Assembly (NCBI GenBank): GCA_910584595.1
Contig: CAJUBQ010000011.1
Span: 17,974 to 81,973, forward strand
Source of the DNA: an uncultured Eubacterium sp.
Lineage (GTDB): Bacteria; Bacillota; Clostridia; Lachnospirales; Lachnospiraceae
DNA: 64,000 nt
Direction: 5' to 3'
Part shown: piece by piece, positions 13,556 to 39,472 of the stretch
Layout of the letters: each line of letters begins with the position of its first letter
Numbering within the stretch: the stretch's first letter is position 1
Program-made: the position numbers and the translations under genes
The notes under the pieces: model-generated
Database searches by the model: none
What the model saw: the letters and a program-made list of their open reading frames with translations, nothing else
Told to the model about the DNA's origin: nothing

Positions 13556-13592
13556 AATAGAAAAGCACACCTGTCTTCAATATCAGATGTGC
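13556..13592 (-). terminator. Rho-independent terminator (minus strand)
   Basis: Read on the minus strand: GCACATCTG...CAGGTGTGC (one G.U) followed by TTTTCTATT. Confidence 0.5.
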
Positions 13593-13779
13593 TTATCTAC
13601 AATTCCATGTTCAAGTTACTACAAGCCTTGCCTGTGACAGTCTTTAACCCTTTATTTTTCAATGTTTCTTCAACAATCCTTATGACAGCCTACATTTCAT
13701 GCGGCTTTCCAATGTTTTATGCGATTGTATAGAGTACGTTAGACCTTTTGAGAGTGACGCGAAACAACACTATTTTTTA

Positions 13780-14358
13780 TTACTTGCTTTGCAGCTGTGT
13801 CATACCCTTTGTTTCATAATAATCGGTTCTCGTCATACCATATAAATAGTAATCGCAATAGGTATTCACCATTTTACCGTCGCGGATATGTCCCTCACGC
13901 TTAAACCCTGCTTTTTCCAGTGTTTTATATGACGCGATATTTAGAACATGGACATCAGCCCATAATCGTTGCAATTCTGTTTTTTCAAAACAGAAAATCA
14001 CTACTTCAGTTAATGCTTCTGCCATAAGCCCATTTCCTTGATAAATCGGGGAAAGCCGGAACGCCACCTTTGCCATACGATCATTTTCAATGAGATATAC
14101 CCACATCTCACCAATTACTTTATTGTCCTTTTTATAAACAATTCCCCAATGAAAGCTCTTTGTAGGCCGTTCCTTTTTTTGAAATAACAATTCCGGGTTT
14201 AAGTCACTTTTTCCGGGACGTTTCCCCCAATATTGATACAACGATTTGTCGCCCAACCATTCTTTCAAATCATCAATATCATCATACTGCAAAGGACGTA
14301 ATAGGAGCCTTTCTGTATCAAGTATCGGTTTGTTCTGAATATAATCTTGTAGTTTCAT
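13780..14358 (-). CDS. GNAT-family N-acetyltransferase (RimJ/RimL-like)
   Basis: ERLLLRPLQYDDIDDLKEW plus a Q-x-x-G-x-G/A-like segment YQGNGLMAEAL are typical of Acetyltransf_3-type GNATs. Confidence 0.75.
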   Translation of the reverse strand: MKLQDYIQNKPILDTERLLLRPLQYDDIDDLKEWLGDKSLYQYWGKRPGKSDLNPELLFQKKERPTKSFHWGIVYKKDNKVIGEMWVYLIENDRMAKVAFRLSPIYQGNGLMAEALTEVVIFCFEKTELQRLWADVHVLNIASYKTLEKAGFKREGHIRDGKMVNTYCDYYLYGMTRTDYYETKGMTQLQSK

Positions 14359-14367
14359 AAAGCCCCC

Positions 14368-14844
14368 TTAAAAATTGAATACTTGTTCCCAATTAAAGCA
14401 GCCGGACGCTTCTGTGCTTCTCGGCCATTCGCTGCACCATACGGGAACGCCGGGGGTTTCCACTCTGTCAAAACTCGGCGTATATGGCTTTATATCCAAT
14501 ACGGGAGTGTTGTCGTTCGCGTCAATAAAAGTAAGCCGAATAATTCCCCTGTTAAGATCAATACTGATAATTTCTGATGTTGTTAAAGCAATAGGGTTAG
14601 GACGGGCGGGCGATCTTGTGGCGAAAACGCCCATTACTGCTGGTGCATTTTTATAGGGCTGTTCGGTTTGTAACAATTTACGGTCTGCTTGGTTATCACA
14701 ATCGCTAAACCACCAGATTACATTGATATGACTAAATCCTTCCAATGCTTGCAGTCCGGGAATATATTCCGGCTCTAATTCTATAAATGCTCCGTTGTGA
14801 TCATTCTTTACCTTTCCAATAGGTTTTAATTGATAATCGTTCAT
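14368..14844 (-). CDS. TrmO/TsaA-like SAM-dependent methyltransferase
   Basis: ATG 14844 is preceded by AGGAGG. Motifs GFSHINVIWWF and FATRSPARPNPIALT are characteristic of the TrmO (YaeB/UPF0066) family. Confidence 0.75.
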   Translation of the reverse strand: MNDYQLKPIGKVKNDHNGAFIELEPEYIPGLQALEGFSHINVIWWFSDCDNQADRKLLQTEQPYKNAPAVMGVFATRSPARPNPIALTTSEIISIDLNRGIIRLTFIDANDNTPVLDIKPYTPSFDRVETPGVPVWCSEWPRSTEASGCFNWEQVFNF

Positions 14845-14945
14845 ATCGTACCTCCTGTTTTTCGTTGTGAGTTCAGTATAATACCTCACATCATGTGAGA
14901 TACAAGAGGGGAAATAAAAATGCCCTGCATTTTTGCAGGACATTA

Positions 14946-15758
14946 CTACCTTAATTCCAAAGGTATTTGTATTTCAGTCAGGTACTTTGCCGGATTACAT
15001 TCATTCCATGCCCCTCTATGCACAATTTGGCGCATAGGATTGGACATTCGATATTCACTGTTTTTTTGCAGCCATTCAGCAAAAGCAATATACGCTCCTT
15101 TGATATTTGAAAAATCACCATACACCATCGTACAGGCCATAACAGGTACAGGCTCAATCGTGCGGAAACAGAATGGAGCAATATCTTTGCATAACTTATT
15201 TACAGGAACGCATAACTCAATATCTACATTTTGTTCCTTATATTCTGTGTCGTGATAAACGGAAAATGTATGATTGGACATTTCTATTTTCTGCTCTTTG
15301 GCAAAAGCAGAAAGTTCATTCCATAAATCACCCTCGGAGTAATATGTCGGAACAACTCTTCGCAAAGATAATACTTGATACTCTGGTATCGCCTTAATGG
15401 AAATATTGTAATGAAGTTCCCCTTTGTTTTCTTGTATCTCGCTTTTTGCTATCGCAATTTTCCGTATTTTCTCCTGCTCGTTTTGTATTGTCTGCTCGAT
15501 TTCTAATCGCTTTTTTTCAAGGGTTTCAAGAAGTAAACGATCATTCATTTCAAGCGCAAGCGCAATTTCAGAAACAAGAAAGCCACTGTCACGCAAATAC
15601 AATATTCTGTTCAGACTGGGGATTTGAGTTACAGAGTACATTCGGTGTCCCGTCCATTTATCGACTTCTGCTGGTTTCAACAGCCCCACTTCATCATAAT
15701 ATCGAAGCATACGAATAGATACTTGTGTTAGCTTTGAAAATTCACCTATTCTAAACAT
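14946..15758 (-). CDS. MerR-family regulator with GyrI-like effector-binding domain
   Basis: N-terminus MFRIGEFSKLTQVSIRMLRYYDEVGLLKP plus a ~150-aa C-terminal domain of BmrR/GyrI-like size. Confidence 0.8.
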   Translation of the reverse strand: MFRIGEFSKLTQVSIRMLRYYDEVGLLKPAEVDKWTGHRMYSVTQIPSLNRILYLRDSGFLVSEIALALEMNDRLLLETLEKKRLEIEQTIQNEQEKIRKIAIAKSEIQENKGELHYNISIKAIPEYQVLSLRRVVPTYYSEGDLWNELSAFAKEQKIEMSNHTFSVYHDTEYKEQNVDIELCVPVNKLCKDIAPFCFRTIEPVPVMACTMVYGDFSNIKGAYIAFAEWLQKNSEYRMSNPMRQIVHRGAWNECNPAKYLTEIQIPLELR

Positions 15759-15778
15759 CTTATCACCTCTTGTATATC

Positions 15779-15810
15779 ATTATACTTGAAGTTTTGTATA
15801 CTTCAAGCAG
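15779..15810 (-). promoter_or_regulatory. MerR-type promoter with overlapping palindrome
   Basis: The minus strand reads CTTGAAGTATACAAAACTTCAAG then TATAAT (15779-15784). ACTTGAAGT and ACTTCAAGT form an inverted repeat across the spacer, just upstream of the MerR start. Confidence 0.45.
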
Positions 15811-15865
15811 ATTTGGCACATATCCATAACGGAGAAACGGCATAGCCCCAAAAGCCGCGCCTTTT

Positions 15866-16195
15866 TCAGCGTTGACTTGATAGGATGTATCTTTGTAACT
15901 GCCATATCTTCGCCAGCGCTCCTTTGATGTCCTCAATGTCCTGCGCGTACACAATCCCGGTACTGTTGATACGCCGGGCAATCTGATTGACATTGGCGCC
16001 GATCTTTTGCAGCTCGGCGGTCTGCGCCCGGATGTCGCGGGTGTCCATGTGGACGATATACCCGTCAATAAGCATTTTCCGGGCATAGGCGGAAAAGTTC
16101 TTTGTGTGGAGCTGGGCCATTTTCTGCTGGATCAAGGCCCGTTCTTCCGGCGTCACAGGGACACGCAGCACAAAGTTTCGTGTTCGGTTTGCCAT
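15866..16195 (-). CDS. MobC-family mobilization relaxosome protein
   Basis: RNFVLRVPVTPEERALIQQKMAQLHTKNFSAYARKMLIDGYI is the MobC pattern. I chose the internal ATG 16195. No relaxase gene follows it. Confidence 0.7.
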   Translation of the reverse strand: MANRTRNFVLRVPVTPEERALIQQKMAQLHTKNFSAYARKMLIDGYIVHMDTRDIRAQTAELQKIGANVNQIARRINSTGIVYAQDIEDIKGALAKIWQLQRYILSSQR

Positions 16196-16392
16196 GTTTT
16201 CACCATCCTTTCTGAACAGGGGTTTGGGGCTTTCCCCAACAAGCAACCGGCCACGGCCCGCAGGGACAGGGTCAGGCCGGTTTTCGGAAGTGTGGCTACA
16301 CTTCCTATGATTGCATCTTATTAGGAACACTGTAAATACAAAGCTTTTCAAAGCCTACAAACCGAAAAAAATAATATTTGATCTATCACATT

Positions 16393-16438
16393 ACGCAGAA
16401 AGCCGTCCGGCATGAAAAATCGGGCGGCTTTTTTGCGT
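16393..16438. repeat. 17-bp imperfect inverted repeat upstream of mobC
   Basis: ACGCAGAAAGCCGTCCG / CGGGCGGCTTTTTTGCGT with an 11-nt loop. It extends beyond a simple terminator stem. Confidence 0.4.
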
Positions 16439-16520
16439 GGATAGAGGAAAGGAGGTAAAAAATAATTACAGAAATTTAGCCCTCAAAATTGTGCAACTTT
16501 CACGAAAAGGAGGATAGTGA

Positions 16521-16733
16521 ATGGCAGATGAAAAATTGAACACCGGCCCCGGCGAGCAGAACACACCCCCGGCTCCCGGCCCGGTAACAGAGGAACAGCC
16601 CCAGGCTCCTGCTCCCGAACAGGCCGCCGCTCCCCAGCCGGAGCAGTCCGGGCCTGCCCAGCCCGAGGCGGGGGATGTGGTGGTGTCTTTTGACAAAATC
16701 AATGAGCTGATGGCGGAAAAGCGGCGTCCTTGA
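16521..16733 (+). pseudogene. probable 5' fragment of a P/Q/A-rich ICE gene
   Basis: 70-aa ORF with RBS AAAGGAGGA. The reading frame and the GC-rich tract both end near 16755, where AT-rich DNA begins. Confidence 0.3.
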
Positions 16734-17064
16734 AGGCAAGCCCCAGGGCGTGAGAGTCAAACCGTGTTATTTCTTTGCGTTCATTCATTTTCATTTCACC
16801 CTATATCATTCTACATTTCTGGTTTAATTATGTGAATGAAACTGAATTTCAGTTTTATGAGTATTTTATTTCGTAATTTTATGTAGATACTATTGACAAT
16901 GGCTTTGGGATAGGATAAAATAAATAAAAACAAATAGAAAAAGGTGATGAAAGTCCGGCGTATCAGATGCCACATAATCGGTGGTGTTGATATGACTGGA
17001 AAAGAGTAGATAAAATCAATTCAATAGGTAAAAAGATAACTGATTGAACAGTTTATTTTTCATG

Positions 17065-17150
17065 CCTAAGGTTTGATTTTATTTTACTCTTAACTTTTCT
17101 TATCCTTAGGAAAGATTAGCCGTAGAGTAAAATCTACGGCTTTTTCTTTT
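17065..17150 (+). promoter_or_regulatory. terminator/antiterminator leader upstream of the methyltransferase gene
   Basis: Terminator GCCGTAGA (17119-17126) / TCTACGGC (17133-17140) + TTTTTCTTTT. ATTTTACTCT (17081-17090) is the perfect complement of AGAGTAAAAT (17124-17133), which spans the terminator loop. There is an additional CCTAAGG/CCTTAGG helix. Confidence 0.5.
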
Positions 17151-17177
17151 GACCAAACATGAAAGGAGAACTTAGTT

Positions 17178-18011
17178 ATGTATGACAATTTACTCACTAT
17201 TTTTGAAAAGCCATCTCTTTACAAAAAAATGGAGATCCCCTTTTGGGATGACGAACATATATCGTTGCAAATGTTAAAAGCGCATTTAAATCCAGAGTTT
17301 AATGGAGCAAGTAGAAAATTAGATTTTATAAATAAATCTGCCGACTGGATAACAAGAATTGTTCGGCCATCAGAATTTAATGAACTCCTTGATATAGGTT
17401 GTGGTCCTGGTATATATGCTGAAAGGTTTGCTCAATTTGGTTACTCGGTTACAGGGATTGATTTTTCAAAGCGCTCTATAAATTATGCGACAAGTTCTGC
17501 CGCTAAACAAAACCTTAATATACAGTATCTGTATCAGGACTACTTGAACATGAACTTGAACAAAACTTTTGATTTTTCAACTTTAATTTACTGTGACTAT
17601 GGTGCTTTATCATCAGAAGATAGGAAAACTTTATTGAAAGTGGTATATACACATCTAAGGCCCGGAGGGAAATTTTTGCTGGATGTATTTTCAATGAGTA
17701 AGTACAACTGTTTTGAAGAAAAGAACACATGGAATATATATCCGACAGGCGGCTTTTGGAAGAAAGAAAAGTACCTTGAGTTTAACTCGTCTTTTCGGTA
17801 CTCAGATTGTGTCACATTGGAGCAAACATCCATCATTTCTCCAAATGATCCTGCTGCTATTTACTATATCTGGAATACCTATTTTACAAAGGAAACTCTA
17901 ATCAATGAAATGAAATCAGAAGGTTTTAAAATATGTGAAGTATTTAGCGATGTAGCAGGAAAACCGTATTGTGAAGATAGTCTAACGATAGCTGTCTTGT
18001 TAGAGAAGTAA
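17178..18011 (+). CDS. class I SAM-dependent methyltransferase
   Basis: Motif I LLDIGCGPGIYA and post-I YSVTGIDFS. RBS GAAAGGAGAA upstream. Confidence 0.8.
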   Translation: MYDNLLTIFEKPSLYKKMEIPFWDDEHISLQMLKAHLNPEFNGASRKLDFINKSADWITRIVRPSEFNELLDIGCGPGIYAERFAQFGYSVTGIDFSKRSINYATSSAAKQNLNIQYLYQDYLNMNLNKTFDFSTLIYCDYGALSSEDRKTLLKVVYTHLRPGGKFLLDVFSMSKYNCFEEKNTWNIYPTGGFWKKEKYLEFNSSFRYSDCVTLEQTSIISPNDPAAIYYIWNTYFTKETLINEMKSEGFKICEVFSDVAGKPYCEDSLTIAVLLEK

Positions 18012-18387
18012 AAAAGAAAATTTTATATTGCAGTGGCACTCTGCCGAATAAAAAAAACCGTAAGTCGGCAGGGTGATTTGCTATAACCGGCAAATAGTGT
18101 TCCGGGCAAAGTTTCAGCTTGTGGCTGACCCGTTGCCGCTGTTCGCTGTCCCCTCGCATGATTTCCGGGTTGAAATACCGTTCTACGGGAAGCCCGCAGA
18201 TTTTAATAAGCTGGATCACAACCGGGAGGCTGGGGATCGTGCCTTTATTCTCAATATTGGCAAGATAGCGCCATTCAATACCCACCATTTCAGCCAGCGT
18301 TTTACGCGCCAGATGTTTTGCTTTCCGTGCGGCTTTTACATCCGCGCCGAAAGTTTCAAAACCGGGACAATCTTCAACATTCGCCAT
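17944..18387 (-). CDS. XRE-family HTH regulator, native C-terminus replaced
   Basis: Paralog of 8457-8804 (KTLAEMVGIEWRYLANIEN...LPVERYF...KLKLCPEHYLPVI). Similarity ends near 18075, and the frame then reads into the 3' end of the methyltransferase cassette. Confidence 0.6.
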   Translation of the reverse strand: MANVEDCPGFETFGADVKAARKAKHLARKTLAEMVGIEWRYLANIENKGTIPSLPVVIQLIKICGLPVERYFNPEIMRGDSEQRQRVSHKLKLCPEHYLPVIANHPADLRFFLFGRVPLQYKIFFFTSLTRQLSLDYLHNTVFLLHR

Positions 18388-18770
18388 ATAGCATCACCCA
18401 TTTACATTGTATAATTCATACTTTGTCCGTGGAATGTTGTTATATGCGGGTTAATTAAACTTTATAATTCATATTTCTTTGATTATAAGAACGCAAAACC
18501 ATGAAAACAAAGCAAACTAATCCGGGCCCTCCTGAACAGCTCCTAAGAAAGCGCCGGACATGTCAGCCTGTTGGCCCTATACCCATCGTTTTCCTATGGG
18601 TTTATTCTACGCATTTCAAAGCTCGTTCCGGCAGGTATTTGATATATCATTCTGCCACCCCACCGACCACCGCCGAAAAGCCTTGATTTCTGCGAGCTTT
18701 TTGTCCTCTAAATGCGTAGATAGGATGAGCATTTCAGCTCTCGTGTTCTGCGTACTGTTTACAGTGATGC

Positions 18771-18789
18771 TACATTCTATAATTCATAT
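18771..18789 (+). repeat. recurring promoter-like motif TACATTnTATAATTCATA
   Basis: TACATTCTATAATTCATAT here. Near-identical copies lie at 8820-8838 and 18403-18420, and the core TATAATTCATAT recurs at 18463-18474. Confidence 0.5.
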
Positions 18790-18846
18790 TCTGTTCCTTG
18801 TATTCTTCGAGAAAACGAATTATAATGAATAAATTGGAGGTGTATT

Positions 18847-19041
18847 ATGGACTATATGACTTTGAAAGAAGCAGGTGAAAAATGGGGCGTGACTCCCCGA
18901 TGGATAAATTATTACTGTGCTGCATCCCGTATCCCCGGAGCCATAAAAATGGGGACAGTATGGTTAATCCCGAAAGACGCCGAAAAGCCCTTAGATATGC
19001 GAACGAAACAAGGAAAGGAATTAAAACATGAAACCATATAA
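18847..19041 (+). CDS. small helix-turn-helix DNA-binding protein
   Basis: MTLKEAGEKWGVTPRWINYYCAASRIPGAIKMGTVWLIP is an excisionase/MerR-like HTH pattern. RBS GGAGGTG upstream. Confidence 0.6.
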   Translation: MDYMTLKEAGEKWGVTPRWINYYCAASRIPGAIKMGTVWLIPKDAEKPLDMRTKQGKELKHETI

Positions 19042-19699
19042 GATACTGATTATTGAAGATGATCCTGTTATACAAAGCGAATTGGAAATCCTTTTGCGCG
19101 GCAATGGATATACTGCTGTTTCAGTAAAGGATTTTTCAAAGGTGAACGATACTTTTAGAGCAGAAGATCCACACCTTGTCTTATTAGATATTAAATTGCC
19201 CAATGAAAGCGGCTTTTCTATCTGTTCTCAAATTCGCAGCAATTCAAATGTTCCAATTATTTTTGTAACAAGCTGCAATACAGATATGGATGAACTCAAC
19301 AGCATCATGCTGGGCGGTGACGCCTTTATTACAAAACCCTATCACACGGCGATTCTTCTGGCAAAAATCGCATCCCTACTCAAACGGTCATACCCGGTAC
19401 AGCAGAATGAGCAAATGGTCTATGGTGCTACGGTGCTACACTTGGAATCCAGTAGCTTGGATTATGATGGACAGAGTGTGGAACTAACCAAAAACGAACT
19501 GAAAATTCTTTATTACCTATTCAAAAATGCAGGAAAAATCTGTGCCCGTAGAGATATAGTAGAGTTTTTATGGGATAATCAACTCTATGTGGATGACAAC
19601 GCTCTAAGCGTCAACATCAACCGTATCCGTGAAAAATTGACAGGTATCGGTCTGACAGATTTTATCAAAACAAAGCATCGACAGGGGTACACAGTATGA
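19028..19699 (+). CDS. OmpR-family response regulator
   Basis: Receiver domain ILIIEDD...LVLLDIKLP plus a winged-helix C-terminus ...FIKTKHRQGYTV. Confidence 0.9.
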   Translation: MKPYKILIIEDDPVIQSELEILLRGNGYTAVSVKDFSKVNDTFRAEDPHLVLLDIKLPNESGFSICSQIRSNSNVPIIFVTSCNTDMDELNSIMLGGDAFITKPYHTAILLAKIASLLKRSYPVQQNEQMVYGATVLHLESSSLDYDGQSVELTKNELKILYYLFKNAGKICARRDIVEFLWDNQLYVDDNALSVNINRIREKLTGIGLTDFIKTKHRQGYTV

Positions 19700-20709
19700 A
19701 CCGCAGACAGTATTGGAAAAATAGAATCCCATTCCTGCTGACCAACCTGATCTGCATGGTTGCGCTTACTGTATTCCTGCTGGTATGTGGCAATCCTATT
19801 TCTGTGGTACTACTGATTTCTGCGGTATGGGCGCTGATCTTGTTGGCAGGTCTGTTCCTTACTTACTGGAAGCGACAGCGACAAATGCGACAGCTTTTAG
19901 ACATGACCGGTCAGCTTTCGGAACGCTATCTCGTTTCCGAAGTGATGGAGTTGCCGGAACAGGCAGAGGATCAGGTTTACTATCGGCTTTTGAAAATGGC
20001 CGGAAAATCTATGTTGGAACAGATTGGAACGGTTTGTCAGGAACGTCAGGAATACAAGGAATATATTGAACAGTGGATTCACGAGATCAAAACGCCTATT
20101 ACCGCTATGAAACTACTGTGCGAAAACCATCGGACAGACTGGACAAAGGAACTGCTGTTGGAACTCGAAAAGACCAACCGCTTTACTGAACAGGCGCTTT
20201 ATTATGCCCGCAGCGAACATACTGAGAAAGATTATTCTGTTCGTGAAATGGCTCTGGCCCAAGTGGTGCATCAGGCGATTGCGGACAACAAATACCTGCT
20301 GCTCCAGAGCGGGGTGCGGCTGAAAGTGGAGGAAATGCAGGATACAGTTTATTCTGATGAAAAATGGGTGCGGTTCATTCTAAACCAACTAATTGCCAAT
20401 GCGGTCAAATATCGGGCCGAGCAGCCGATTATTCGCTTTTCCGCCCGTAGGCAACGAGATCAAGTGGTTCTTGTGGTGGAGGATAACGGAATCGGAATTT
20501 CACTCGCTGACCTGCCTCGCGTCTTTGAAAAAGGATTTACTGGGCAGAACGGGCGCATGATCCAGCAGTCCACAGGGATCGGCCTATACCTGTGTAAACG
20601 CCTCTGTGACAAGCTGGGTATCAGCATTACAGCGGCATCATCTGAACATGGCGCATCTATTTCTCTGGCTTTTCACATTAACTGTCTGATCCATGAGGTG
20701 CAGAGCTAA
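19696..20709 (+). CDS. sensor histidine kinase (BceS-like, intramembrane-sensing type)
   Basis: Two N-terminal TM segments with almost no loop, H-box WIHEIKTPITA, and an HATPase region VEDNGIGI...GIGLYL. Confidence 0.85.
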   Translation: MNRRQYWKNRIPFLLTNLICMVALTVFLLVCGNPISVVLLISAVWALILLAGLFLTYWKRQRQMRQLLDMTGQLSERYLVSEVMELPEQAEDQVYYRLLKMAGKSMLEQIGTVCQERQEYKEYIEQWIHEIKTPITAMKLLCENHRTDWTKELLLELEKTNRFTEQALYYARSEHTEKDYSVREMALAQVVHQAIADNKYLLLQSGVRLKVEEMQDTVYSDEKWVRFILNQLIANAVKYRAEQPIIRFSARRQRDQVVLVVEDNGIGISLADLPRVFEKGFTGQNGRMIQQSTGIGLYLCKRLCDKLGISITAASSEHGASISLAFHINCLIHEVQS

Positions 20710-20810
20710 AATGGTTCTGCACTTCTTACATTTCTGTTAGAACTTTGTAAGAAAACTTGATACAAATGGCGTTCATATTATTTTACAATAGGATTAGAGG
20801 TGATAATACT

Positions 20811-21563
20811 ATGAAAGAAGTTTTGAAGCTGGAACATATCCAGAAGTATTACGGAAATGGCGGTAACATCACAAAAGCGATTCAAGACATCAGTTTTTCC
20901 GTTCAGGAGGGGGAATTTGTAGGGATTATGGGCGCGTCTGGCTCCGGCAAGACCACCCTGCTTAACTGCATTTCCACTATTGATACGGTCAGCGCAGGAC
21001 ATATCCATTTGGACGGGACTGATGTGACAGAGATAAACGAAAAGCAGATTGCCCGGTTTCGCCGGGAAAATCTGGGCTTTGTATTTCAGGACTTTAACCT
21101 GCTGGACACCCTGACCATTTCCGAGAACATTGCTCTAGCATTGACAATCAACAAGGTTCCCGCAGGTGAGATCGACGGGCGGGTACAAGAAATGTCCAGT
21201 AAACTAAACATCACGGATATTCTGAAAAAATACCCCTATCAGGTATCCGGCGGCCAAAAGCAACGGTGCGCCTGCGCCAGAGCCATCATCAACAATCCTA
21301 AGCTGATTCTGGCGGACGAACCCACCGGCGCACTGGACAGCCATTCGTCCCAGATGCTGCTATCCACTATCCAGAGCATCAACGAAACGCTGGGTGCAAC
21401 CATACTAATGGTAACGCATGACGCCTTTTCTGCGAGTTATGCAAATCGTATTCTCTTTTTGCGCGACGGCACGATTTTTACGGAAATCCGCAAAGGCAAC
21501 GATTCTCGCAGAACTTTCTTTAACAAGATTTTAGATGTCCTCACCATGATGGGAGGGAATTGA
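20811..21563 (+). CDS. ABC transporter ATP-binding protein (BceA/MacB-like)
   Basis: ATG 20811 follows AGAGGTGA. Walker A GASGSGKTT, signature VSGGQKQR, Walker B LILADEPT. Confidence 0.9.
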   Translation: MKEVLKLEHIQKYYGNGGNITKAIQDISFSVQEGEFVGIMGASGSGKTTLLNCISTIDTVSAGHIHLDGTDVTEINEKQIARFRRENLGFVFQDFNLLDTLTISENIALALTINKVPAGEIDGRVQEMSSKLNITDILKKYPYQVSGGQKQRCACARAIINNPKLILADEPTGALDSHSSQMLLSTIQSINETLGATILMVTHDAFSASYANRILFLRDGTIFTEIRKGNDSRRTFFNKILDVLTMMGGN

Positions 21564-21567
21564 AATT

Positions 21568-23622
21568 ATGCTTGCAAGTCTTTCACAACGTAATATGAAA
21601 CGGCAGTTAAGTGAATATAAGATTTTTTGGTTTTCCCTTATCGGCGTTGTTGCCCTTATGTATGCGTTCAATTCTCTTATTGTTTCTCATACTATGCAAC
21701 AGCTTTTTCGTTTATTTGCCGAGAGCGGAAACGGTGATATTGGCGTGATTGCCGCCCTTTTTTCTGCCGTCGTTGTATTTGCACTTGGGTGGTTTATCAG
21801 CTACATGATGGACTTCATCTTACAGCGTCGCAGCAAGGAAATTAGCACCTATATGATATTGGGTGTAGAAAAAGGCGACATTTGCAAAATGATATTTAAG
21901 GAAAATGCTTTTTTGGGCCTTATGGCTGTTATTGTGGGCTTTGGCTTTGGGATTTTAGTTTCTAAAATATTAGAAAGTTTTGTTTCAAATCTATTCCACT
22001 TTCAAGAAGCATTATTAGCTTTTCTTTCTGTATCAGCAGTCGGCTTGACTTGCATCGAATTTTGCATTGTCTATATAATCGCACTGATTAAGACGAATAG
22101 AAAAGTACAAACGGTTAAATTGATAGATCTGTTGAATTACAGTCGGAACAACAGTAGTGTTCGTGAACACCAATCTAAAACTGGCTTCATGTTTTTGCTG
22201 ATTTCCGTGGTAATGCTCATTGTAAGTTTCTATTTGTTTGCGGGAACAAAACAGACAGTGGCAAGCATTACCGCAGGTGCAGTTTCGGCAATGTTGGGGC
22301 TGTTGTTCTTCTTTCGAGGATTTATTTATATCATACACGAAATGCTTAATAAATCTCAGAACTGGAAATACAAAGGAAGTCGTTTAGTTACCTTACGAAT
22401 GTTCCTTTCAAAATCCAACAAAATGAGTTTCTCATTAGGTGTTATCTCAATTTTATTCACCTGCACCATCGTTTGTATTGGTATGACAAATGCTTTTTAT
22501 CAGGTCATGGAGAAAGCAGTTGTTATGCAGCCATTCGACCTTGCGATTGTTCATGTAGGTGAGAACGGTGATTATAGCCAATATTCCTCATTCTTGAATG
22601 AACGCATTGATGTAGACAACCAATATTCCTATTGCTTATATACAGATAAAAGCACACAATTTACTGACATTAGAAATCGTGTCTTAACAAAATACTGGAA
22701 CAGGGCAAGCAAAACCGTATCAATCAACGACTATGTTATTGCAGAAAACCAGTACGATGCCTTTATGAAATATAGTGATTATTGTAATTTGCGAGCAATG
22801 TTGGGCCTGCCTCAAATACCATTGTCAGAAGAACAATACATCATTCATTGCCTGCCATATCTGAAAGATACATTTACAAATTTTCAGATTGAAAAAGGCA
22901 CTCTGGTTTGCAAGGATATTTTTACCGAGGCGTTCTCACAGTATGGTGGATATGGTAACGGCCAAGATTTTGTAATCGTTGTCCCGGATCACTATATTGA
23001 AAATATGGAAGCGATGTACAGCCTCTATGTTGCTCAATCCGAAACAGTGATTGATATGTCTGAATTGGAAAACGAATTTCCGCAAGTTAGGCCATTGAAC
23101 TCCAATGTGGTTGCTTCCGGGGAAAACGGATACACAACAAAAATCCTCGACAAAGGAAACTATTACTACATGGGCAAATTAGCAAGTACACCTACCAGCC
23201 AAGCTATCTTAATTATTCTGCCATTGTGCTACTTGTCGCTGGTTATCGGCATAATTAGTATTGTAATACTCGCTGTTCAACTTTTGACGGAAGTGAAAAC
23301 AATAAAGCGTCAATACAATGTAATGAGAACACTTGGAAACGAGGTGATTGTTCTTGAAAAAATGTTGAGAGATCATATATTTCTTTACTTCGCATTGCCA
23401 TTTATTCCTGCAATAGTCATTGGTAGTTGCTTACTAAAGTCAATGAGCCATACGCTTTTTATAGCTTCTTATGATGTGCCTGTATTTGATAATCTAACCG
23501 CATTGATAGCACTTGTGGTTTTGAGTGCTTTACTGATTTTTACCCTTATTTATCTCCTGTATGCGTTTATTGCCTCTCAGTCTATGAGGAAGGAAATAAT
23601 CCCTCTAACATTAGAAAAATAA
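21568..23622 (+). CDS. FtsX-family ABC permease (BceB-like)
   Basis: 684 aa. TM clusters at both ends flank a large central soluble loop, the usual BceB architecture. Confidence 0.8.
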   Translation: MLASLSQRNMKRQLSEYKIFWFSLIGVVALMYAFNSLIVSHTMQQLFRLFAESGNGDIGVIAALFSAVVVFALGWFISYMMDFILQRRSKEISTYMILGVEKGDICKMIFKENAFLGLMAVIVGFGFGILVSKILESFVSNLFHFQEALLAFLSVSAVGLTCIEFCIVYIIALIKTNRKVQTVKLIDLLNYSRNNSSVREHQSKTGFMFLLISVVMLIVSFYLFAGTKQTVASITAGAVSAMLGLLFFFRGFIYIIHEMLNKSQNWKYKGSRLVTLRMFLSKSNKMSFSLGVISILFTCTIVCIGMTNAFYQVMEKAVVMQPFDLAIVHVGENGDYSQYSSFLNERIDVDNQYSYCLYTDKSTQFTDIRNRVLTKYWNRASKTVSINDYVIAENQYDAFMKYSDYCNLRAMLGLPQIPLSEEQYIIHCLPYLKDTFTNFQIEKGTLVCKDIFTEAFSQYGGYGNGQDFVIVVPDHYIENMEAMYSLYVAQSETVIDMSELENEFPQVRPLNSNVVASGENGYTTKILDKGNYYYMGKLASTPTSQAILIILPLCYLSLVIGIISIVILAVQLLTEVKTIKRQYNVMRTLGNEVIVLEKMLRDHIFLYFALPFIPAIVIGSCLLKSMSHTLFIASYDVPVFDNLTALIALVVLSALLIFTLIYLLYAFIASQSMRKEIIPLTLEK

Positions 23623-23700
23623 GTAGAATAGAAATTTCATCTGCCGGACGACGGCAAAAGAAAAAAGCCGTCGTACAGCAGCCCTATTCACGCGCCCATG

Positions 23701-23738
23701 AAACGGCAGCTCTAAATTTGAGCCGCCGTTTCCTTTTG
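23701..23738 (+). terminator. Rho-independent terminator
   Basis: AAACGGCAGCTC / GAGCCGCCGTTT (one mismatch) followed by CCTTTTG. Confidence 0.55.
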
Positions 23739-23892
23739 CAGAAAACCCAACGACGACCCTACACCTTGCAATTTGACATGGCGGCAATCAGGAGGACGCC
23801 GCCATGCACGGAAAAGTTTTTCGACATAAAACAACAAAGGCCATCTTATTAAAAAAGCCTGTTCTGCATCGTTTTTTTGCCACAAATAGATT

Positions 23893-24162
23893 TTATTTTA
23901 TCTTTATCTCGTCTGTATCACTAACCAGCCATTCCATTGATACATGCAAGGCTTTTGCCAGCATAAGCAATTCTGCATCGCAGACATGTCGCTGGTTCTT
24001 CTCTATACGTGAGATGATCAGAGGCGTCATATCCTCCATGCCCATAAACTGAATCCTTTGGGCAAGCTCCTCTTGTGTAATCGGGGGCTTTTGCAGTGCG
24101 CGGCCCAATCTTACTTTATCAGAGCATATATTTCCTTTTATTGTAAACATGCTTCTACCCAT
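23893..24162 (-). CDS. XRE-family HTH regulator
   Basis: ITQEELAQRIQFMGMEDMTPLIISRIEKNQR is an HTH_3-like pattern. It is divergent from the plus-strand gene block. Confidence 0.65.
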   Translation of the reverse strand: MGRSMFTIKGNICSDKVRLGRALQKPPITQEELAQRIQFMGMEDMTPLIISRIEKNQRHVCDAELLMLAKALHVSMEWLVSDTDEIKIK

Positions 24163-24213
24163 TCATAAATCTCCATTTTCTCTGTCTTATTTAGATATTT
24201 TTTATCGCGTCTA

Positions 24214-24273
24214 TTGATTTTATACTGAAACAAGATATAATGTTGGATAGGGTGGATATTTATTATCTTGTTT
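24214..24273 (+). promoter_or_regulatory. promoter with overlapping inverted repeat (candidate operator)
   Basis: TTGATT (24214-24219), a 16-nt spacer, then TATAAT (24236-24241). AAACAAGAT (24228-24236) and ATCTTGTTT (24265-24273) form an inverted repeat. Confidence 0.4.
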
Positions 24274-24517
24274 AGATAGAAATATGCTTTTTTTATGATT
24301 GTCCGCGACCAATGCGGTTTATGCTTTGATAATAGCCATGTAGTGAGATTGCGTAGGGAAGAACTTCATTGGCGTGGTATGGCAGATAAAATGGCACAAA
24401 AGTGGCATAGGAAATGCCGATGACATGGAAAAGAAAATCTGTTATACTTATATCGTCTACAAGTGGGTTCTCAGGAATCTGCTTGTTTTTTTATTTTCAG
24501 GAAAGGAGTTCGATACT

Positions 24518-25555: not shown

Positions 25556-26005
25556 ATGAAGGAGAGATTTTATGAGTTGCCAGCACCTTTACAAAAGCAG
25601 ATTGCCATAAGAATTGTAGGGGGTGCTGTTTTCTTGCTGTTGTTTGTTATCATCTTGCTTGGTTTTCGGGATTTCTATTTTAGCTTACCCTGCCTGCTGT
25701 TGTCCGGGTTTCTGCTTATAAACGGGATTCGACTATGCTATAATAGCTTTGCTGGCAACTATATGTGCATCCAGGGAACCTGCGAGAAAATTGAAACGGT
25801 CGGGCTCCGAAAAAGAACCAAAGGGATCTGGGTTCAACTGGAGGGAAACGTAGTGAAAATTCCTATTCGGCAAAGAATGAAGGTGCTCTCTATTGGCGAT
25901 ACTGTTATTATATACTTATCAGACAAAACCCCGGTATATGAGCATGAGGGCAATTATATGATATGCAGCTACTATGCACTGGGAATAGAAAAGAGAGGTA
26001 ATTAA
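25556..26005 (+). CDS. hypothetical membrane protein
   Basis: ATG 25556 follows GAGGTGA. Two N-terminal TM segments. Confidence 0.5.
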   Translation: MKERFYELPAPLQKQIAIRIVGGAVFLLLFVIILLGFRDFYFSLPCLLLSGFLLINGIRLCYNSFAGNYMCIQGTCEKIETVGLRKRTKGIWVQLEGNVVKIPIRQRMKVLSIGDTVIIYLSDKTPVYEHEGNYMICSYYALGIEKRGN

Positions 26006-26168: not shown

Positions 26169-26181
26169 TTTTTCAGATGGA

Positions 26182-26210
26182 TTGACTATTGAAGCTGCAT
26201 ATGCTATAAT
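26182..26210 (+). promoter_or_regulatory. near-consensus sigma-A promoter (copy 1)
   Basis: TTGACT, a 17-nt spacer, then TGcTATAAT (extended -10). TGGATTGACTATTG is identical to the sequence at 41408-41421. Confidence 0.6.
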
Positions 26211-26216
26211 GCTTAT

Positions 26217-26306
26217 ATCAGTTTCAAGATTTCCAAAGAGAAATCACGAGTTTCAGAGTTTTCAAAGTGTCAATTAGCACAATTGTGCTGGTTGGCACTT
26301 TTTTTG
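26217..26306 (+). ncRNA. candidate ~90-nt structured RNA / leader ending in a terminator (copy 1)
   Basis: Hairpin GATTTC/GAAATC (26228-26245). Terminator stem 26266-26280 / 26285-26299 has three T.G wobbles that only pair on the plus strand, followed by T7. Homologous to 41447-41534 with compensatory changes. Confidence 0.45.
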
Positions 26307-26388
26307 TTTCTTTTGGTTTCTGCCTGCAAAGCAGGTTTGAAATAAATATTTTTTATAGCAGGTAACCCCTGCGAGAAAGGAGATTTCC

Positions 26389-26886
26389 ATGTTAAAAGTT
26401 TTTGCAACACAAGTCGTCGTATCCAAAGGTTATGACAACACGCCAGCTCTTCGCTTTTCTGAGAATGGTGATTCTGTGAGGTTCCGTATCGGCAAGAAGG
26501 TCTATGATCCTCATGCTGAAAACGACAGCCGCTGGATCAACCTTCCGGTCAAAGCGTTTAACGGCGTATGCGAGCGCATCAAGAAGATGCAGCTGAAAGA
26601 GGGTTCCTTTGTGAATCTGATTGGCAGGCTGGACGAAGATTCCTGGGAAGATAAGGATACCAAAGAAACCAGAAAAATGATGGTTATTATTCTGGATGAC
26701 ATTGAGTATGCTTCCGGTGGAGGCAAGTCCAAGGAAAACCAGGCAGCTGCAGGACAGCAAAATGCGGCTCCCCAGAATACTGCTCCGCAAAATGCTGCTT
26801 CCGTTCCTGCGACAGGCGCTGAAGCATCCGGAAATTTTACCGGGTATGAAGCATTTGGCGGCGGATCATTCTTTGATGAGAATTGA
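26389..26886 (+). CDS. ssb: single-stranded DNA-binding protein
   Basis: OB-fold-like N-terminus (RFRIGKKV...WINLPVKAFNGVCE...GSFVNLIGRLDEDSWEDKD), a Q/A/N-rich linker, and the acidic tip GGSFFDEN. Confidence 0.75.
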   Translation: MLKVFATQVVVSKGYDNTPALRFSENGDSVRFRIGKKVYDPHAENDSRWINLPVKAFNGVCERIKKMQLKEGSFVNLIGRLDEDSWEDKDTKETRKMMVIILDDIEYASGGGKSKENQAAAGQQNAAPQNTAPQNAASVPATGAEASGNFTGYEAFGGGSFFDEN

Positions 26887-36905: not shown

Positions 36906-36952
36906 TTTACATTCGCACTTCAATAGTGTATAATGTGGAGTGCGGATGTAAA
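36906..36952 (+). promoter_or_regulatory. abiE promoter bracketed by a 14-bp inverted repeat
   Basis: TTTACA (36906-36911), a 17-nt spacer, then TATAAT (36929-36934). TTTACATTCGCACT (36906-36919) and AGTGCGGATGTAAA (36939-36952) are inverted repeats with one mismatch. Confidence 0.5.
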
Positions 36953-37572
36953 TGGAACCAAGGAGGTGCATTGATACGGACACGATTTGGACTAAAATTC
37001 AAACAATTGCAGAAAAAAGCAATGGGTTTGTTAAGACTTCTGATATTGAGGCGGCTGGAATCAGCAGACCGATGTTGAAAAAGTATGTTGATATGGGAAA
37101 ATTAGATCCGGTGCGAAAAGGGTTATATACTTTGACCGATGAATTTACTGATGAGTTTGCGCTTCTTCAGGCACAAAGCGCAAAGATAATATATTCCTAT
37201 GGCACCGCACTGTTCTTTTGGGGGATGTCGGACAGGGCGCCGAACATCTTGGATATAACGCTGCCTCGCGGAACGAACATCAGCAGGTTAAGGCGTGATA
37301 ATCCAAATTTACGTTGTCATTATGTACAGACGGAAGTTTACGATCTTGGAATAACAGAAACAAAATCCCCTCAAGGCGGGATGGTAAAGCTGTATGACAG
37401 GGAGCGCTGTATTTGTGATGTGATCCGGGATAAGGATCAAATTGAGCTCCAGCTTTTTACGCAGGCAATTAAGGACTATTTTAAGACAAATCCAAATAAC
37501 CGAAAATTGCTGAAATATGGCAAGGTATTTGGAATTGAAGATAAGATAAGAACATATATGGAGGTTTTATAA
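36952..37572 (+). CDS. abiEi: type IV toxin-antitoxin system antitoxin, AbiEi family
   Basis: N-terminal wHTH-like GFVKTSDIEAAGISRPMLKKYVDMGKLDPVRKGLY. Its position and 1-nt overlap (TAATG) with the AbiEii gene support the call. Confidence 0.7.
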   Translation: MEPRRCIDTDTIWTKIQTIAEKSNGFVKTSDIEAAGISRPMLKKYVDMGKLDPVRKGLYTLTDEFTDEFALLQAQSAKIIYSYGTALFFWGMSDRAPNILDITLPRGTNISRLRRDNPNLRCHYVQTEVYDLGITETKSPQGGMVKLYDRERCICDVIRDKDQIELQLFTQAIKDYFKTNPNNRKLLKYGKVFGIEDKIRTYMEVL

Positions 37573-38411
37573 TGAAGACACCGGAACAACTAAAAGGAGC
37601 CATTCGCAGCATGGCAGCGAAGAAAAATCTTCGTGCACAGGAAGTGCTGCAGATGTTTTTATTTGAAAGAATCATTGATCGTTTGGCAGCTTCATCCTTT
37701 CGGGACAATTTTATTTTGAAGGGCGGACTCTTGATATCATCAATGATCGGTATTGGTGAACGCACTACTATGGATATGGACACAACGGCGCGTGGTATTC
37801 AGATGGAAGAGGACGAGATCGTTTCTGCAGTCAAAGAGATTATCGCAATGGATGTGGGAGACGGAATTTCTTTTGAATTTCAGAAAATTGAACCAATCCG
37901 CGAGGATGATGCGTACAATAATTTCCGGGTTCATCTGCGTGCAAAATACGGGAAGATTGACAGCCCAATGAAGATAGACATTACTACCGGAGATATTATT
38001 ACGCCTGCAGCCATTCGTTATGATTTCCCGTTTGTGTTTGAGGAGAAAACGGTTTCGGTCATGGCATATACGCTTGAGACAGTGCTTGCGGAAAAATATG
38101 AAACGATTATCCGCAGAAACATTGGAACTACAAGGGCAAGGGATTATTATGATTTACATACTCTTTACCGCAGCCGTAAAGATGTGGTTCAGATGGAGGT
38201 TCTGAGAGCAGCAGTTATTCATACTGCGGAGAAAAGAGATTCGGTTGATGATATCATGGACTGGAGAGATATTTTGAAGGATATCCGTGAAGAGCCGCAG
38301 TTATATCTTCTGTGGGATAATTATGCTGCGGACAACAAATACATTGGAGATTTGAAATTCAATGAAGTTCTTGATACAGTGGACGAAATTGCAAAGATTC
38401 TTGATTTGTGA
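37572..38411 (+). CDS. abiEii: nucleotidyltransferase toxin, AbiEii/AbiGii family
   Basis: FILKGGLLIS...TMDMDT... and LAEKYETIIRR...RARDYYDL are typical AbiEii segments. Confidence 0.8.
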   Translation: MKTPEQLKGAIRSMAAKKNLRAQEVLQMFLFERIIDRLAASSFRDNFILKGGLLISSMIGIGERTTMDMDTTARGIQMEEDEIVSAVKEIIAMDVGDGISFEFQKIEPIREDDAYNNFRVHLRAKYGKIDSPMKIDITTGDIITPAAIRYDFPFVFEEKTVSVMAYTLETVLAEKYETIIRRNIGTTRARDYYDLHTLYRSRKDVVQMEVLRAAVIHTAEKRDSVDDIMDWRDILKDIREEPQLYLLWDNYAADNKYIGDLKFNEVLDTVDEIAKILDL

Positions 38412-38488
38412 TATCAAGTAAGAAAAGATTAAATTTTTTTTGAAACACTTATAATAGAAATCGGAATTTGAAAGTGAGGTGTAATTAA

Positions 38489-39472
38489 ATGAATAAAGAA
38501 GAATTACATCGTGTTATAGGAGAGCAACAGCCTAATATATGCCAAGTGGTTGCAGTCAAAGATAGCAACATTATTTATAGTGATACTTGGAATGATTTCA
38601 AACAAGATGATAATGTTCATATTGCTTCGGTAACAAAAAGCATTATAGCCATACTTATAGGAATTGCTATTGACAAAGGTATGATTAAAAGTATTCATCA
38701 AAAAGTATTGGACTTTTTCCCTGACTATGTGATTAAAAGAGGAGAAAAGACCATACACGATATTACTTTATATCATTTGCTTACGATGACCGCACCGTAT
38801 AAATTCAAGTCGGAGCCTTGGACAAAAGTATGTATGAGTGAGGATTGGACAAAGGCAGTTCTTGATTTGCTCGGCGGTAAAAGCGATATTATAGGTGAGT
38901 TTAAGTATTCAACACTCGGTATACATATATTGAGTACAATAATAACCAAAGTAAGCAATATGCCAACATTGGAATTTGCCAATAAATATTTATTTAAGCC
39001 CCTTGGAATAAAGAACAGACATCTTTACACAGTAAAAAACAAAGAGGAACATATTGGCTTTGTAACTTCAAAAGAACCTAAAGAAAACGGTTGGTTTTGT
39101 GATAACAAAGGAACAGTTACTTCGGGTTTTGGCTTGTGTTTATCAGCAGAAGATATGGCGAAAATAGGACAAATGTGCCTTGATAAAGGAATGTATGATA
39201 ACAAAAGAATTGTATCTTCTGAATGGATTGAAAAGATAACAACACCATATTTAACTACTGATGAAAAATTTGGATTTATGCAATATGGATTTTTGTGGTG
39301 GATTATAGATAGTGAAAAGAAAATATATTCTGCAATCGGCGATAGCGGAAATGTAATATATGTTAATACCGAAAAAAATATCGTTATATCCGTTACGGCA
39401 ACTTTCAAACCTTTGGTATTTGATAGGGTTCAGTTTATAAGAGAATATATCGAGCCATTTGTTTTAGGATGA
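38489..39472 (+). CDS. serine hydrolase, beta-lactamase/transpeptidase-like
   Basis: S-x-x-K motif in IASVTKSIIAILIG. Size and overall pattern match class C-like serine hydrolases. Confidence 0.75.
   Translation: MNKEELHRVIGEQQPNICQVVAVKDSNIIYSDTWNDFKQDDNVHIASVTKSIIAILIGIAIDKGMIKSIHQKVLDFFPDYVIKRGEKTIHDITLYHLLTMTAPYKFKSEPWTKVCMSEDWTKAVLDLLGGKSDIIGEFKYSTLGIHILSTIITKVSNMPTLEFANKYLFKPLGIKNRHLYTVKNKEEHIGFVTSKEPKENGWFCDNKGTVTSGFGLCLSAEDMAKIGQMCLDKGMYDNKRIVSSEWIEKITTPYLTTDEKFGFMQYGFLWWIIDSEKKIYSAIGDSGNVIYVNTEKNIVISVTATFKPLVFDRVQFIREYIEPFVLG

Follow-up and report, generated by a model that had tools for sequence, protein, structure and literature searches.

A structured RNA with its own promoter and terminator heads the ssb-like and DUF932-like operons of integrated elements in gut Clostridia and may serve as a default-off leader gate

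Two related modules, each consisting of a promoter, a structured RNA of about 87 nt and an intrinsic terminator, were found in a 64,000-nt stretch of DNA from an uncultured Eubacterium sp. of the Lachnospiraceae (GenBank assembly GCA_910584595.1, contig CAJUBQ010000011.1, positions 17,974 to 81,973; hereafter the window, to which coordinates refer). Copy A precedes an operon that begins with an ssb-like gene, and copy B precedes an operon that begins with the gene for a 380-amino-acid (aa) DUF932-like protein. We tentatively propose, with a probability of about 45%, that each module is a default-off leader gate that releases an abundant ∼87-nt RNA and makes operon expression dependent on an antitermination factor. 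We class the arrangement as a new form of leader-terminator control, and judged from sequence comparisons the RNA is a previously uncatalogued family kept in considerably more than 100 related elements. The Clostridia of human and animal guts abound in integrated plasmid-like and conjugative elements, and the silencing and switching on of replication, recombination and partition genes in integrated elements are largely unstudied beyond Tn916, ICEBs1, and pLS20. As to scale, the DUF932-like protein alone has more than 1,600 relatives, and a search of metagenomes with it gave at least 302 loci. The module is a compact, conserved cassette of ∼130 bp (promoter plus 87-nt RNA) whose covariance model serves RNA annotation, and if the RNA were the by-product of an unregulated attenuator, it would still be a new family for RNA databases.

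A preliminary description of the window, prepared from its letters and open reading frames, had reported an identical -35 region, a 17-nt spacer and an extended -10 TGnTATAAT at both loci, and these are present at 26182 to 26210 and 41412 to 41440, both on the plus strand. Promoter A has TTGACT at 26182 to 26187, the 17-nt spacer and TGcTATAAT at 26202 to 26210, an 11/12 match; promoter B has TTGACT, 17 nt and TGtTATAAT. The region from 24 to 43 kb contains 46 promoter-like sites, three of which score 11/12, and among those three only promoters A and B carry the TG extension. The whole copies run from 26178 to 26305 and from 41408 to 41533, and the 14-mer TGGATTGACTATTG has two exact matches in the window, at 26178 and 41408 (0 mismatches). 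Over 153 aligned columns the copies are 84% identical.

Module RNA A (∼89 nt) is placed at 26217 to 26305 and module RNA B (∼87 nt) at 41447 to 41533, both on the plus strand. We infer that transcription starts at the A of AUCAGU, 7 nt past the -10. RNA A comprises a 5' box, AUCAGUUUCAAG (26217 to 26228), a hairpin designated P1 (26228 to 26245), a linker (26246 to 26263), and a second hairpin, P2 (26264 to 26301), of 17 bp including three U.G pairs, with U7 at 26299 to 26305. RNA B has the same parts: the 5' box AUCAGUAUCAAG (41447 to 41458), P1 (41458 to 41475), the linker (41476 to 41495), P2 of 15 bp (41496 to 41529), and U7 (41527 to 41533). Two conserved transcript blocks had been described. 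The first, ATCAGTnTCAAG, is found at 26217 and at 41447, but the second, CAGAGTTTnTCAAAGTGTCA, is not an identical block, as a 1-nt indel separates the copies; copy A reads CAGAGTTT-TCAAAGTGTCA, and the pattern written with an 'n' matches copy B only. The internal hairpin, said to differ in sequence and keep its pairing, was confirmed in both copies as P1, with arms GAUUUC/GAAAUC in A and GUUUGGC/GCUAAAC in B. The long terminator hairpin with compensatory arms was likewise found in both, as P2 followed by T7 in the DNA. Both P2 hairpins are of the intrinsic (Rho-independent) type, a G+C-containing hairpin and then a U-run, and efficient termination is predicted.

The minimum free energies (MFE) of the two RNAs are -28.7 (A) and -29.1 kcal/mol (B), with z scores of -4.6 and -6.0, and none of 200 shuffled sequences folded as well. 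The minus strands fold more weakly (-21.9 kcal/mol for A and -16.7 for B) because the three U.G pairs turn into A.C mismatches. When the covariance model was run over the window, copy A scored 95 bits (E 3e-18) and copy B 74.6 bits (E 1e-13), with no other copies; a match of 29 bits to the reverse strand of terminator A came next, and all else scored 18.5 bits or less. By these scores, the module pair is far beyond chance expectation.

Rfam 15 gave no gathering-level match to either module or to the related loci, sister types included, in agreement with the earlier statement that the RNA belongs to no named family. The best sub-threshold matches on the modules were to rimP (22.6 bits, cut-off 47) and EF3314_EF3315 (22.7 bits, gathering cut-off 100). 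The latter, an Enterococcus small RNA (sRNA), weakly matches three hairpins of leader B at 41490 to 41618 (+), namely P2, a second terminator and the hairpin H4' described below (E 0.003 in a 331-nt search), and probably no more than terminator-like hairpins lies behind this match. Sequenced plasmids and phages, searched at the DNA level for near and distant relatives of the modules and of 10 kb of context, gave no match. Exact-pattern scans of IMG/VR contigs yielded the homologues L062, L110, and L116. The first pattern, ATCAGTnTCAAG...CAGAGTTT, hit 108 loci in viral contigs, 107 of which were chance coding sequence of unrelated phages; the sole true homologue among them was L062. Scanning contigs of one genome per species for the base of P2 added ∼27 further homologues, hosted by Lachnospiraceae, Oscillospiraceae, and other Clostridia, both metagenome-assembled genomes and isolates. 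Cultured carriers include Schaedlerella arabinosiphila DSM 106076 (L214) and Flintibacter muris DSM 110149 (L226).

A covariance model (R1) was then built on 29 sequences. Outside the window it gave 113 matches in other loci, representing 81 distinct RNAs: 35 matches fell in the genome and viral loci of true homologues, and 78 fell in 77 of 80 metagenome loci that had been retrieved solely via the downstream protein (68 to 100% amino acid identity). These loci were collected anew via the 380-aa protein alone because the pattern scan had fixed the base of P2 and thus introduced an ascertainment bias. In the 77 loci the module lies mostly ∼110 to 200 nt 5' of the gene. Among viral loci anchored on the same protein, the module was present in six of six with enough upstream sequence, and a seventh, L239, begins 95 nt 5' of the gene. 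The three metagenome loci without a module comprise L264 and L293, which end close to or inside the gene, and L247, which is a natural variant. In L247 (1150 to 1510) an insertion replaces the promoter and RNA B up to the U-tract; the second terminator is retained, and so is a DUF932 gene that is 99% identical. Another locus, L319 (330 to 1510), has tandem modules ∼900 nt apart with an IS200-like tnpA in between.

Both helices are preserved in these homologues and covary. In alignment A4, 91.6% of cells were paired (slid controls, 40 to 49%) and 100 cells showed a double change (controls, 14 to 36). Compensatory change was seen at 12 pairs, and shuffles reached the observed values in 0/500 cases on four of five measures and in 54/500 for the number of pairs with change. 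The protein-anchored alignment A6 had 87.1% of cells paired (slid controls, 37 to 49%), 56 double-change cells, and 11 pairs with compensatory change, and 0/500 shuffles reached the observed values. P1 was at the same position in ∼24 of 29 single-sequence MFE folds, as counted by eye. Taken with the weaker minus-strand folds, the fixed promoter, and the U-runs, this covariation bears out the earlier proposal that the structure is that of a plus-strand RNA.

The promoter is conserved as well. Among 87 distinct instances, TTGAC(T/G/C/A) and the TG extension were present in all 87, the 17-nt spacer in 86, and TATAAT or TATACT in 84, and the spacer sequence is unconserved. The invariant AGU stands 9 nt past the -10 in 75 of the 87. 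The family RNA is 82 to 95 nt long (mode, 87) with a GC content of 30 to 43%, and 76 of the 81 distinct RNAs have a U-run of at least 6. In this main family, type I, the P2 stem measures 13 to 18 bp; the usual Firmicute terminator stem is 9 ± 2 bp (PMC10325885).

Conservation extends beyond pairing. The lowest 7 bp of P2 (AGUGUCA/UGGCACU, with one U.G pair) are invariant in 34 of 34 sequences of A4 and nearly invariant in the 52 protein-anchored sequences of A6, and upper P2 and the whole of P1 change freely, with compensation. The flanking proteins of these loci are syntenic at 38 to 86% amino acid identity, some of them down to 38 to 60%. A 5' box, AGU(U/A)UC, and a GUUUA-type linker are conserved as well. 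The P1 loops (3 to 6 nt) are unconserved, with CAAAGA in copy A versus UACG in copy B. Two sister RNAs, each with its own consensus promoter, were recognized in elements of other gut Clostridia. Type II (∼155 to 160 nt; L147, L151, and L326) stands 5' of DUF932-like genes, one of whose products is 32% identical to the window protein; a cultured carrier of this sister RNA is Sellimonas catena JCM 35622. Type III (∼110 to 120 nt; L132, L157, L161, L175, L191, and L196, with L139 as a variant of ∼180 nt) precedes a different ssb-like gene and has P2 stems of 18 to 20 bp. Both end in AGUGUCA...UGGCACU-U7, the terminator base that they have in common with the module RNA. A sequence-conserved terminator stem is unusual, and that the linker and the 5' arm of P2 are conserved in all three RNA architectures suggests specific recognition. 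The AGU(U/A)UC box, the GUUUA-type linker, and the AGUGUCA arm are a probable target of a sequence-specific protein or other binder of linker and 5' arm in nascent RNA, or of a polymerase modification like that at phage nut and put sites.

The module always lies on the same strand as the downstream operon. The preliminary description had placed it 80 to 110 nt 5' of the first gene, and the distance from U-tract to start codon is indeed 83 nt for A and 107 nt for B. Two main leader classes were distinguished, A-type (ssb) and B-type (DUF932-like). In most A-type loci the ssb-like start is 78 to 89 nt from the U-tract, three leaders being longer, and in B-type loci the module lies 100 to 188 nt 5' of the DUF932-like start. 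In L128, a module variant stands before a third type of operon, one whose homologue lies at window positions 662 to 2154. Leader A (26306 to 26388, +) is mostly conserved in sequence in 13 A-type loci, with one compensatory pair. It contains a hairpin H3 at ∼26315 to 26343 (GGUUUC-CCUGC/GCAGG-UUGAAAU; A-type consensus GGUUUC-CCYGC/GCRGG-UUGAAAU), the nearly invariant box UUGAAAUAAAU at 26337 to 26347, and a hairpin H4 (GCAGG/CCUGC) at 26358 to 26372, which abuts the ribosome-binding site (RBS) at ∼26376 to 26382. Leader B has a second intrinsic terminator at 41560 to 41589 (+), a 13-bp stem followed by UUUUGUUAUAUA, which was present in 10 of 10 B-type leaders examined with differing stem sequences. 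Just 5' of the RBS of the DUF932-like gene, at 41604 to 41618 (+), is H4' (GGCGG/CCGCC).

Neither leader has a promoter-like site in the stretch from P2 to the start codon, and the aligned leaders share no conserved one, which upholds the earlier point that downstream expression would need read-through. No alternative fold that would pre-empt P2 was predicted in MFE or centroid structures or was conserved among the homologues. One candidate pairing in copy B, of 41418 to 41439 with 41491 to 41512, is absent in homologues. Pairing of the 3' arm of P1 with the ssb translation start (GAUUUC) was considered and rejected, as it occurs in the window and its closest relative only and is absent in L062 and L110.

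These features can be joined into one mechanism. The near-consensus sigma-A promoter with its extended -10 would fire constitutively, and the first ∼87 nt would fold into the single-stranded 5' box, P1, a U-rich linker, and P2. At P2, a perfect 13- to 18-bp hairpin with U7, polymerase would stop and a discrete, abundant ∼87-nt RNA would be released; in the DUF932 class, escaping polymerases would then meet the second terminator. The gated operons, ssb-like/AAA+/VWA/methylase on the one side and DUF932/RecE-like/RecD2-like helicase/primase-like/Alp partition on the other, would be made only when a factor suppresses termination. The stretch from P2 to the RBS, with H3 and H4, is conserved and contains no promoter-like site, which argues that the module is a leader and not a stray gene. 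The long stems, the U-runs, the lack of a competing fold, and the second terminator of leader B together point to termination by default.

The opener of such a gate could be a single-strand RNA binder that blocks formation of the hairpin, or a nut/put-like modification of polymerase. That the SSB-like protein of the element is itself the antitermination factor is speculative, the analogy being the autoregulation of T4 gp32. A bolder formulation, which we advance with considerable reserve, is that the module and its two sister types form a new class of cis-acting RNA 'lock', in which the conserved extra-long terminator AGUGUCA...UGGCACU-U7 is opened by a dedicated key that coordinates an ssb/DUF932 establishment-and-replication regulon in many mobile elements of gut Firmicutes. 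As key one may think of a protein that binds single-stranded RNA in a sequence-specific manner, perhaps the SSB-like protein of the element, or of a polymerase-modifying activity of the leader. In Tn916, expression of replication genes in the integrated state harms the host and is prevented by terminators and antitermination (PMC11658703). The genes behind the modules serve replication, recombination, and partition of an integrated element, and the default-off gate fits this silencing logic, which was shown experimentally for Tn916.

Several points weigh against a regulated gate. Scans of ∼60 window proteins with Pfam, PHROGs, and NCBIfam turned up no NusG-, N/Q-, ANTAR-, RAT-type, Hfq-, or ProQ-like protein. 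The P1 loops are unconserved and differ even between the two copies of one element, which disfavors a boxB-type loop reader. The second terminator of the B class has no AGUGUCA motif, so a binder of that motif alone would leave it closed. A strong promoter directly before a strong terminator is the look of a free-standing sRNA gene, terminator efficiency and transcription start are predictions, and constitutive low-level read-through without any regulation is possible.

One of the closest known systems is the lambda PR'-tR' region (6S RNA) with Q, where a strong constitutive promoter makes a short default RNA and the long operon behind the terminator is expressed only upon antitermination. Lambda Q depends on a DNA site inside the promoter and on a sigma-dependent pause. 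In the modules the promoter spacer is unconserved, scans of the window proteins revealed nothing Q-like, and unlike PR'-tR' the RNA has a conserved structure and a sequence-conserved terminator. Like lambda nutL/nutR and HK022 putL/putR, which act as RNA in cis on the transcribing polymerase, the modules are a pair of related promoter-proximal elements in one genome, each heading its own operon; they resemble nut in having a linear box and a hairpin, and put in having two stem-loops. The lambda nut site consists of boxA and a boxB hairpin, with a conserved loop that is the same at both sites in a genome, and it has a cognate N protein. A lambda-type nut site was rejected, since the P1 loops differ between copies and across the family and no N-like protein was identified in the window. 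In HK022, the two put stem-loops bind RNA polymerase and bring about processive antitermination independently of other factors. Unlike in nut and put, the second stem-loop of the module is a full intrinsic terminator with U7. ANTAR leaders have two small hairpins with conserved hexaloops, and RAT is a conserved hairpin overlapping the 5' arm of a terminator. Both ANTAR and RAT (BglG-type) control were set aside, as the module has one small hairpin with an unconserved 3- to 6-nt loop and no alternative hairpin overlapping P2. ToxI-like type III toxin-antitoxin RNAs consist of tandem ∼36-nt repeats followed by a terminator and an endoribonuclease toxin gene. This candidate was also rejected, the two 'box plus hairpin' halves of the module being only loosely alike and the downstream genes being SSB-like and DUF932-like.

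One option in the preliminary description was an antitermination RNA like those of Gram-positive conjugative elements; the modules lack the defining features of conAn2 and canT. The conAn2 RNA of pLS20 is ∼280 nt long, ends in inverted repeats of 20 bp, contains the stem-loops SL1/SL2 and a GC-rich box of 16 bp, and lies beside conAn1 at the start of the conjugation operon (PMC8191782). The module is 82 to 95 nt at 30 to 43% GC, has no long-range 20-bp inverted repeat, and precedes ssb-like and DUF932-like genes. The canT element of Tn916 lies between the 3' end of orf8 and xis, is active as a 452-nt fragment and in some shorter ones, and acts in cis and processively; the DNA-processing genes of Tn916 are kept silent by the intrinsic terminators T1 to T3 and need antitermination (PMC11658703). 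The window resembles Tn916 in being an integrated Firmicute element with an orf7/orf8/xis/int end. The modules, at 26.2 and 41.4 kb, are 10 to 27 kb away from the canT position, are 87 nt long, and have their own promoters; the interval at that position, 52218 to 52597, holds a pemK RNA. With pLS20 the modules share the leader-encoded control of long operons in Gram-positive mobile elements, and the 13- to 18-bp stem of P2 is in the 'extraordinarily long' class of the antitermination-resistant pLS20 terminators, TerR (PMC10325885). In the zipper attenuator cATT of pLS20, a weak upstream stem-loop complementary to the terminator extends a long central stem into an antiterminator (PMC13401043). 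This model was rejected here, since MFE and centroid folds show P1 and P2 only and no conserved segment complements either arm of P2.

Like the Frpo promoters, the modules are repeated regulatory elements 5' of establishment genes, ssb among them, in mobile elements. In Frpo, the -35 and -10 are formed by intrastrand pairing of single-stranded DNA (ssDNA) (PMC9849209, PMC11541004). An Frpo or ssi signal was rejected, as complementarity between the promoter and its flanks was no better than in shuffled sequence (mean z of -0.12 upstream and -0.9 downstream, 40 loci). One 23-nt segment inside the p152 gene, 25953 to 25975, shows 83% complementarity with the -10 and spacer of promoter A at 26188 to 26210 (z, -2.75 against shuffles); this pairing was not seen in homologues and is probably due to chance.

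The preliminary description had left open an sRNA, a regulated leader, or an antitermination RNA, options that the present results narrow without settling. The ∼87-nt RNA might be the product itself, a trans-acting sRNA with its own promoter and terminator whose 5' box and linker act on mRNAs of the host or the element, or whose terminator hairpin binds or titrates a protein, the operon receiving incidental read-through. The module is a complete transcription unit of consensus promoter, strong terminator, and 82 to 95 nt, its most conserved single-stranded stretch is at the extreme 5' end as in many seed-bearing sRNAs, a conserved terminator stem would be expected if a protein recognizes the mature RNA, and no antiterminator structure is predicted. 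We nevertheless consider a trans-acting sRNA rather doubtful. The RNA was never seen apart from an operon start, and the conserved, promoterless leader downstream implies that read-through transcripts matter. Two non-identical copies per element, and sisters with other 5' domains, favor a role in cis over a shared seed. The 64-kb window contains no convincing complementary target, the best duplexes apart from the RNA's own antisense having -13 to -19 kcal/mol in a scan made without a shuffled control.

It is less probable still that P2 and the second B terminator are insulators of a Tn916-style circuit, to which the module promoters and short RNAs would be secondary. After excision, polymerases from the orf7-like promoter, modified at the pemK RNA (52461 to 52524), would read round the circle through the gates; in a variant, the extra-long stems would make P2 resistant to antitermination, so that P2 ends transcription units. 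This would suit an element whose called genes are nearly all on the plus strand and whose Tn916-like right end has the pemK RNA at the canT position, given that canT, between orf8 and xis, reads through T1 to T3 and also through heterologous terminators (PMC11658703). Transcription of the upstream p190-p152-p53 genes is terminated by P2 as well, and stems of at least 14 bp resist processive antitermination in pLS20 (PMC10325885). However, an insulator leaves unexplained both the consensus promoter, kept at a constant distance in all 87 instances, and the conserved, covarying 5' box, P1, and linker; pemK is linked to canT by position alone, and the resistance of long stems is that seen with pLS20 antitermination. 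Signals at the DNA level are unlikely, and we give very little credence to the conserved elements acting as repressor operators (AGTTTC-type), an ops-like non-template signal, a sigma-54 site, or an Frpo- or sso-like ssDNA hairpin serving as promoter or origin. AGU(U/A)UC-like boxes do occur just past the start and again in the linker, and p576 establishment genes are controlled by repeated heptamer operators of Reg576 (PMC6294495). The ssb and DUF932 genes are typical leading-region genes and stand behind ssDNA promoters in proteobacterial plasmids (PMC11541004, PMC9849209), and TGGCACTTTTTTTGT resembles the sigma-54 -24/-12 consensus. Against this, the variable spacing of the P2 half-sites and their compensatory changes indicate a hairpin and not a duplex-binding dimer, the U.G pairs point to a strand-specific structure, the promoter region has no systematic intrastrand complement, and no NusG paralogue was found in the protein scans.

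Three further candidates were rejected. An antisense promoter, suggested by a minus-strand TTGACA in P2, has on inspection no -10 in the ssb class and a spacing that varies from 14 to 16 nt in the DUF932 class. The putative sigma-54 site TGGCAC-N5-TTGT has no -12 GC, and several members have A in place of its G. For a CRISPR-repeat mimic (RNA anti-CRISPR), the sole match to a CRISPR direct repeat (E = 1) lay on the promoter and not on the RNA.

Operon A begins with a divergent SSB-like protein of 165 aa (26389 to 26886, +), which matches Pfam SSB at E 1.7e-6 and PHROG 44; NCBIfam ssb models match as well, all under their cut-offs. It continues with two proteins of unknown function, an AAA_5 ATPase, a CobT/VWA protein, further unknowns, and a DNA methylase. 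Operon B begins with the 380-aa protein (41641 to 42783, +), followed by a RecE/YqaJ exonuclease (42783 to 43820; YqaJ and PHROG RecE-like matches), a DUF7768 protein, a RecD2-like helicase, a primase-like protein, and an Alp-type partition ATPase. The DUF932 assignment of the 380-aa protein, made in the preliminary description, stands at the level of the fold and not at that of Pfam sequence models: there was no Pfam match at E ≤ 1, no NCBIfam match, and no PDB sequence match. An AlphaFold2 model made with database homologues was of moderate confidence (pLDDT 68.6, pTM 0.56) and retrieved several phage DUF932 proteins from BFVD (E 3e-9 to 2e-8, TM 0.36 to 0.51). The >1,600 relatives in the protein collection are all 'hypothetical' and without a Pfam domain, and on the model the family looks like a divergent DUF932 branch missed by current Pfam models.

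From ∼24.3 to 54.4 kb nearly all called genes are on the plus strand; a gene for an 89-aa helix-turn-helix (HTH) protein at 23893 to 24162, inside the adjoining cargo segment, is on the minus strand. The right end is Tn916-like, with an XRE HTH protein, a sigma70_r4 protein (orf7-like), an HTH_16 protein (orf8-like), the pemK RNA, a DUF6462 xis-like protein, and a Tn916-type integrase. The pemK RNA (RF02913; 52461 to 52524, +; 71.6 bits, E 6e-11) is the sole gathering-level Rfam match in the window and sits between the orf8-like gene (52027 to 52218) and the xis-like gene (52597 to 52806). Going by this position, canT-type antiterminators may have the pemK motif as their conserved core. No type IV secretion system, relaxase, or capsid gene was found in the window, and with the first two lacking there, the name 'conjugative element' is unproven. 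No direct repeat of at least 10 bp that could mark an att site was found between the zones 23560 to 24300 and 54340 to 55000.

In the closest relative, L140, the homologue of window 3730 to 5170 joins directly to window 24320, so that 5170 to 24320 is a cargo insertion of ∼19 kb and the element continues past the left edge of the window. This cargo encodes MerR, ABC transporters, TetR, a methyltransferase, a two-component system with an FtsX permease, and an XRE HTH protein, and the part of the element at 1 to 5170 encodes DUF4262, YodL-like, and CxxCxxCC proteins. A second cargo block, 36952 to 41226, lies between operon A and module B and comprises AbiEi/AbiEii (36952 to 38411), a beta-lactamase-family protein (38489 to 39472), and an insertion sequence with a DDE transposase (39766 to 41226). 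Relatives such as IMGVR_UViG_2563367179_000007 lack it at this place, and in that relative 12.7 kb separate the two modules.

Two other leaders of the element were noted. The leftmost conserved gene set, which encodes a Zn-ribbon protein, p190, p152, and p53 and ends 14 nt 5' of the -35 of copy A, is preceded by a leader at 24320 to 24493 (+). That leader ends in a 12-bp terminator with T7 (24459 to 24486) abutting the RBS, and it resembles Tn916 T1; its part GUUUAUGCUUUGAUAAUAG...GUAGUGAG recalls the type II/III linker, and R1 gives it no score. Finally, the ssb leader (26337 to 26358) and the xis leader (52556 to 52580, +) share a 22- to 24-nt box, TTTGAAATAAAT(T)ATTTTTTATAG, which is nearly invariant in the 13 A-type leaders. 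It reads UUG-AAA-UAA (AUG-AAA-UAA in L110), possibly a start-Lys-stop mini-open reading frame, and in the xis leader a perfect Shine-Dalgarno sequence (AAGGAGG) stands 8 nt 5' of it.

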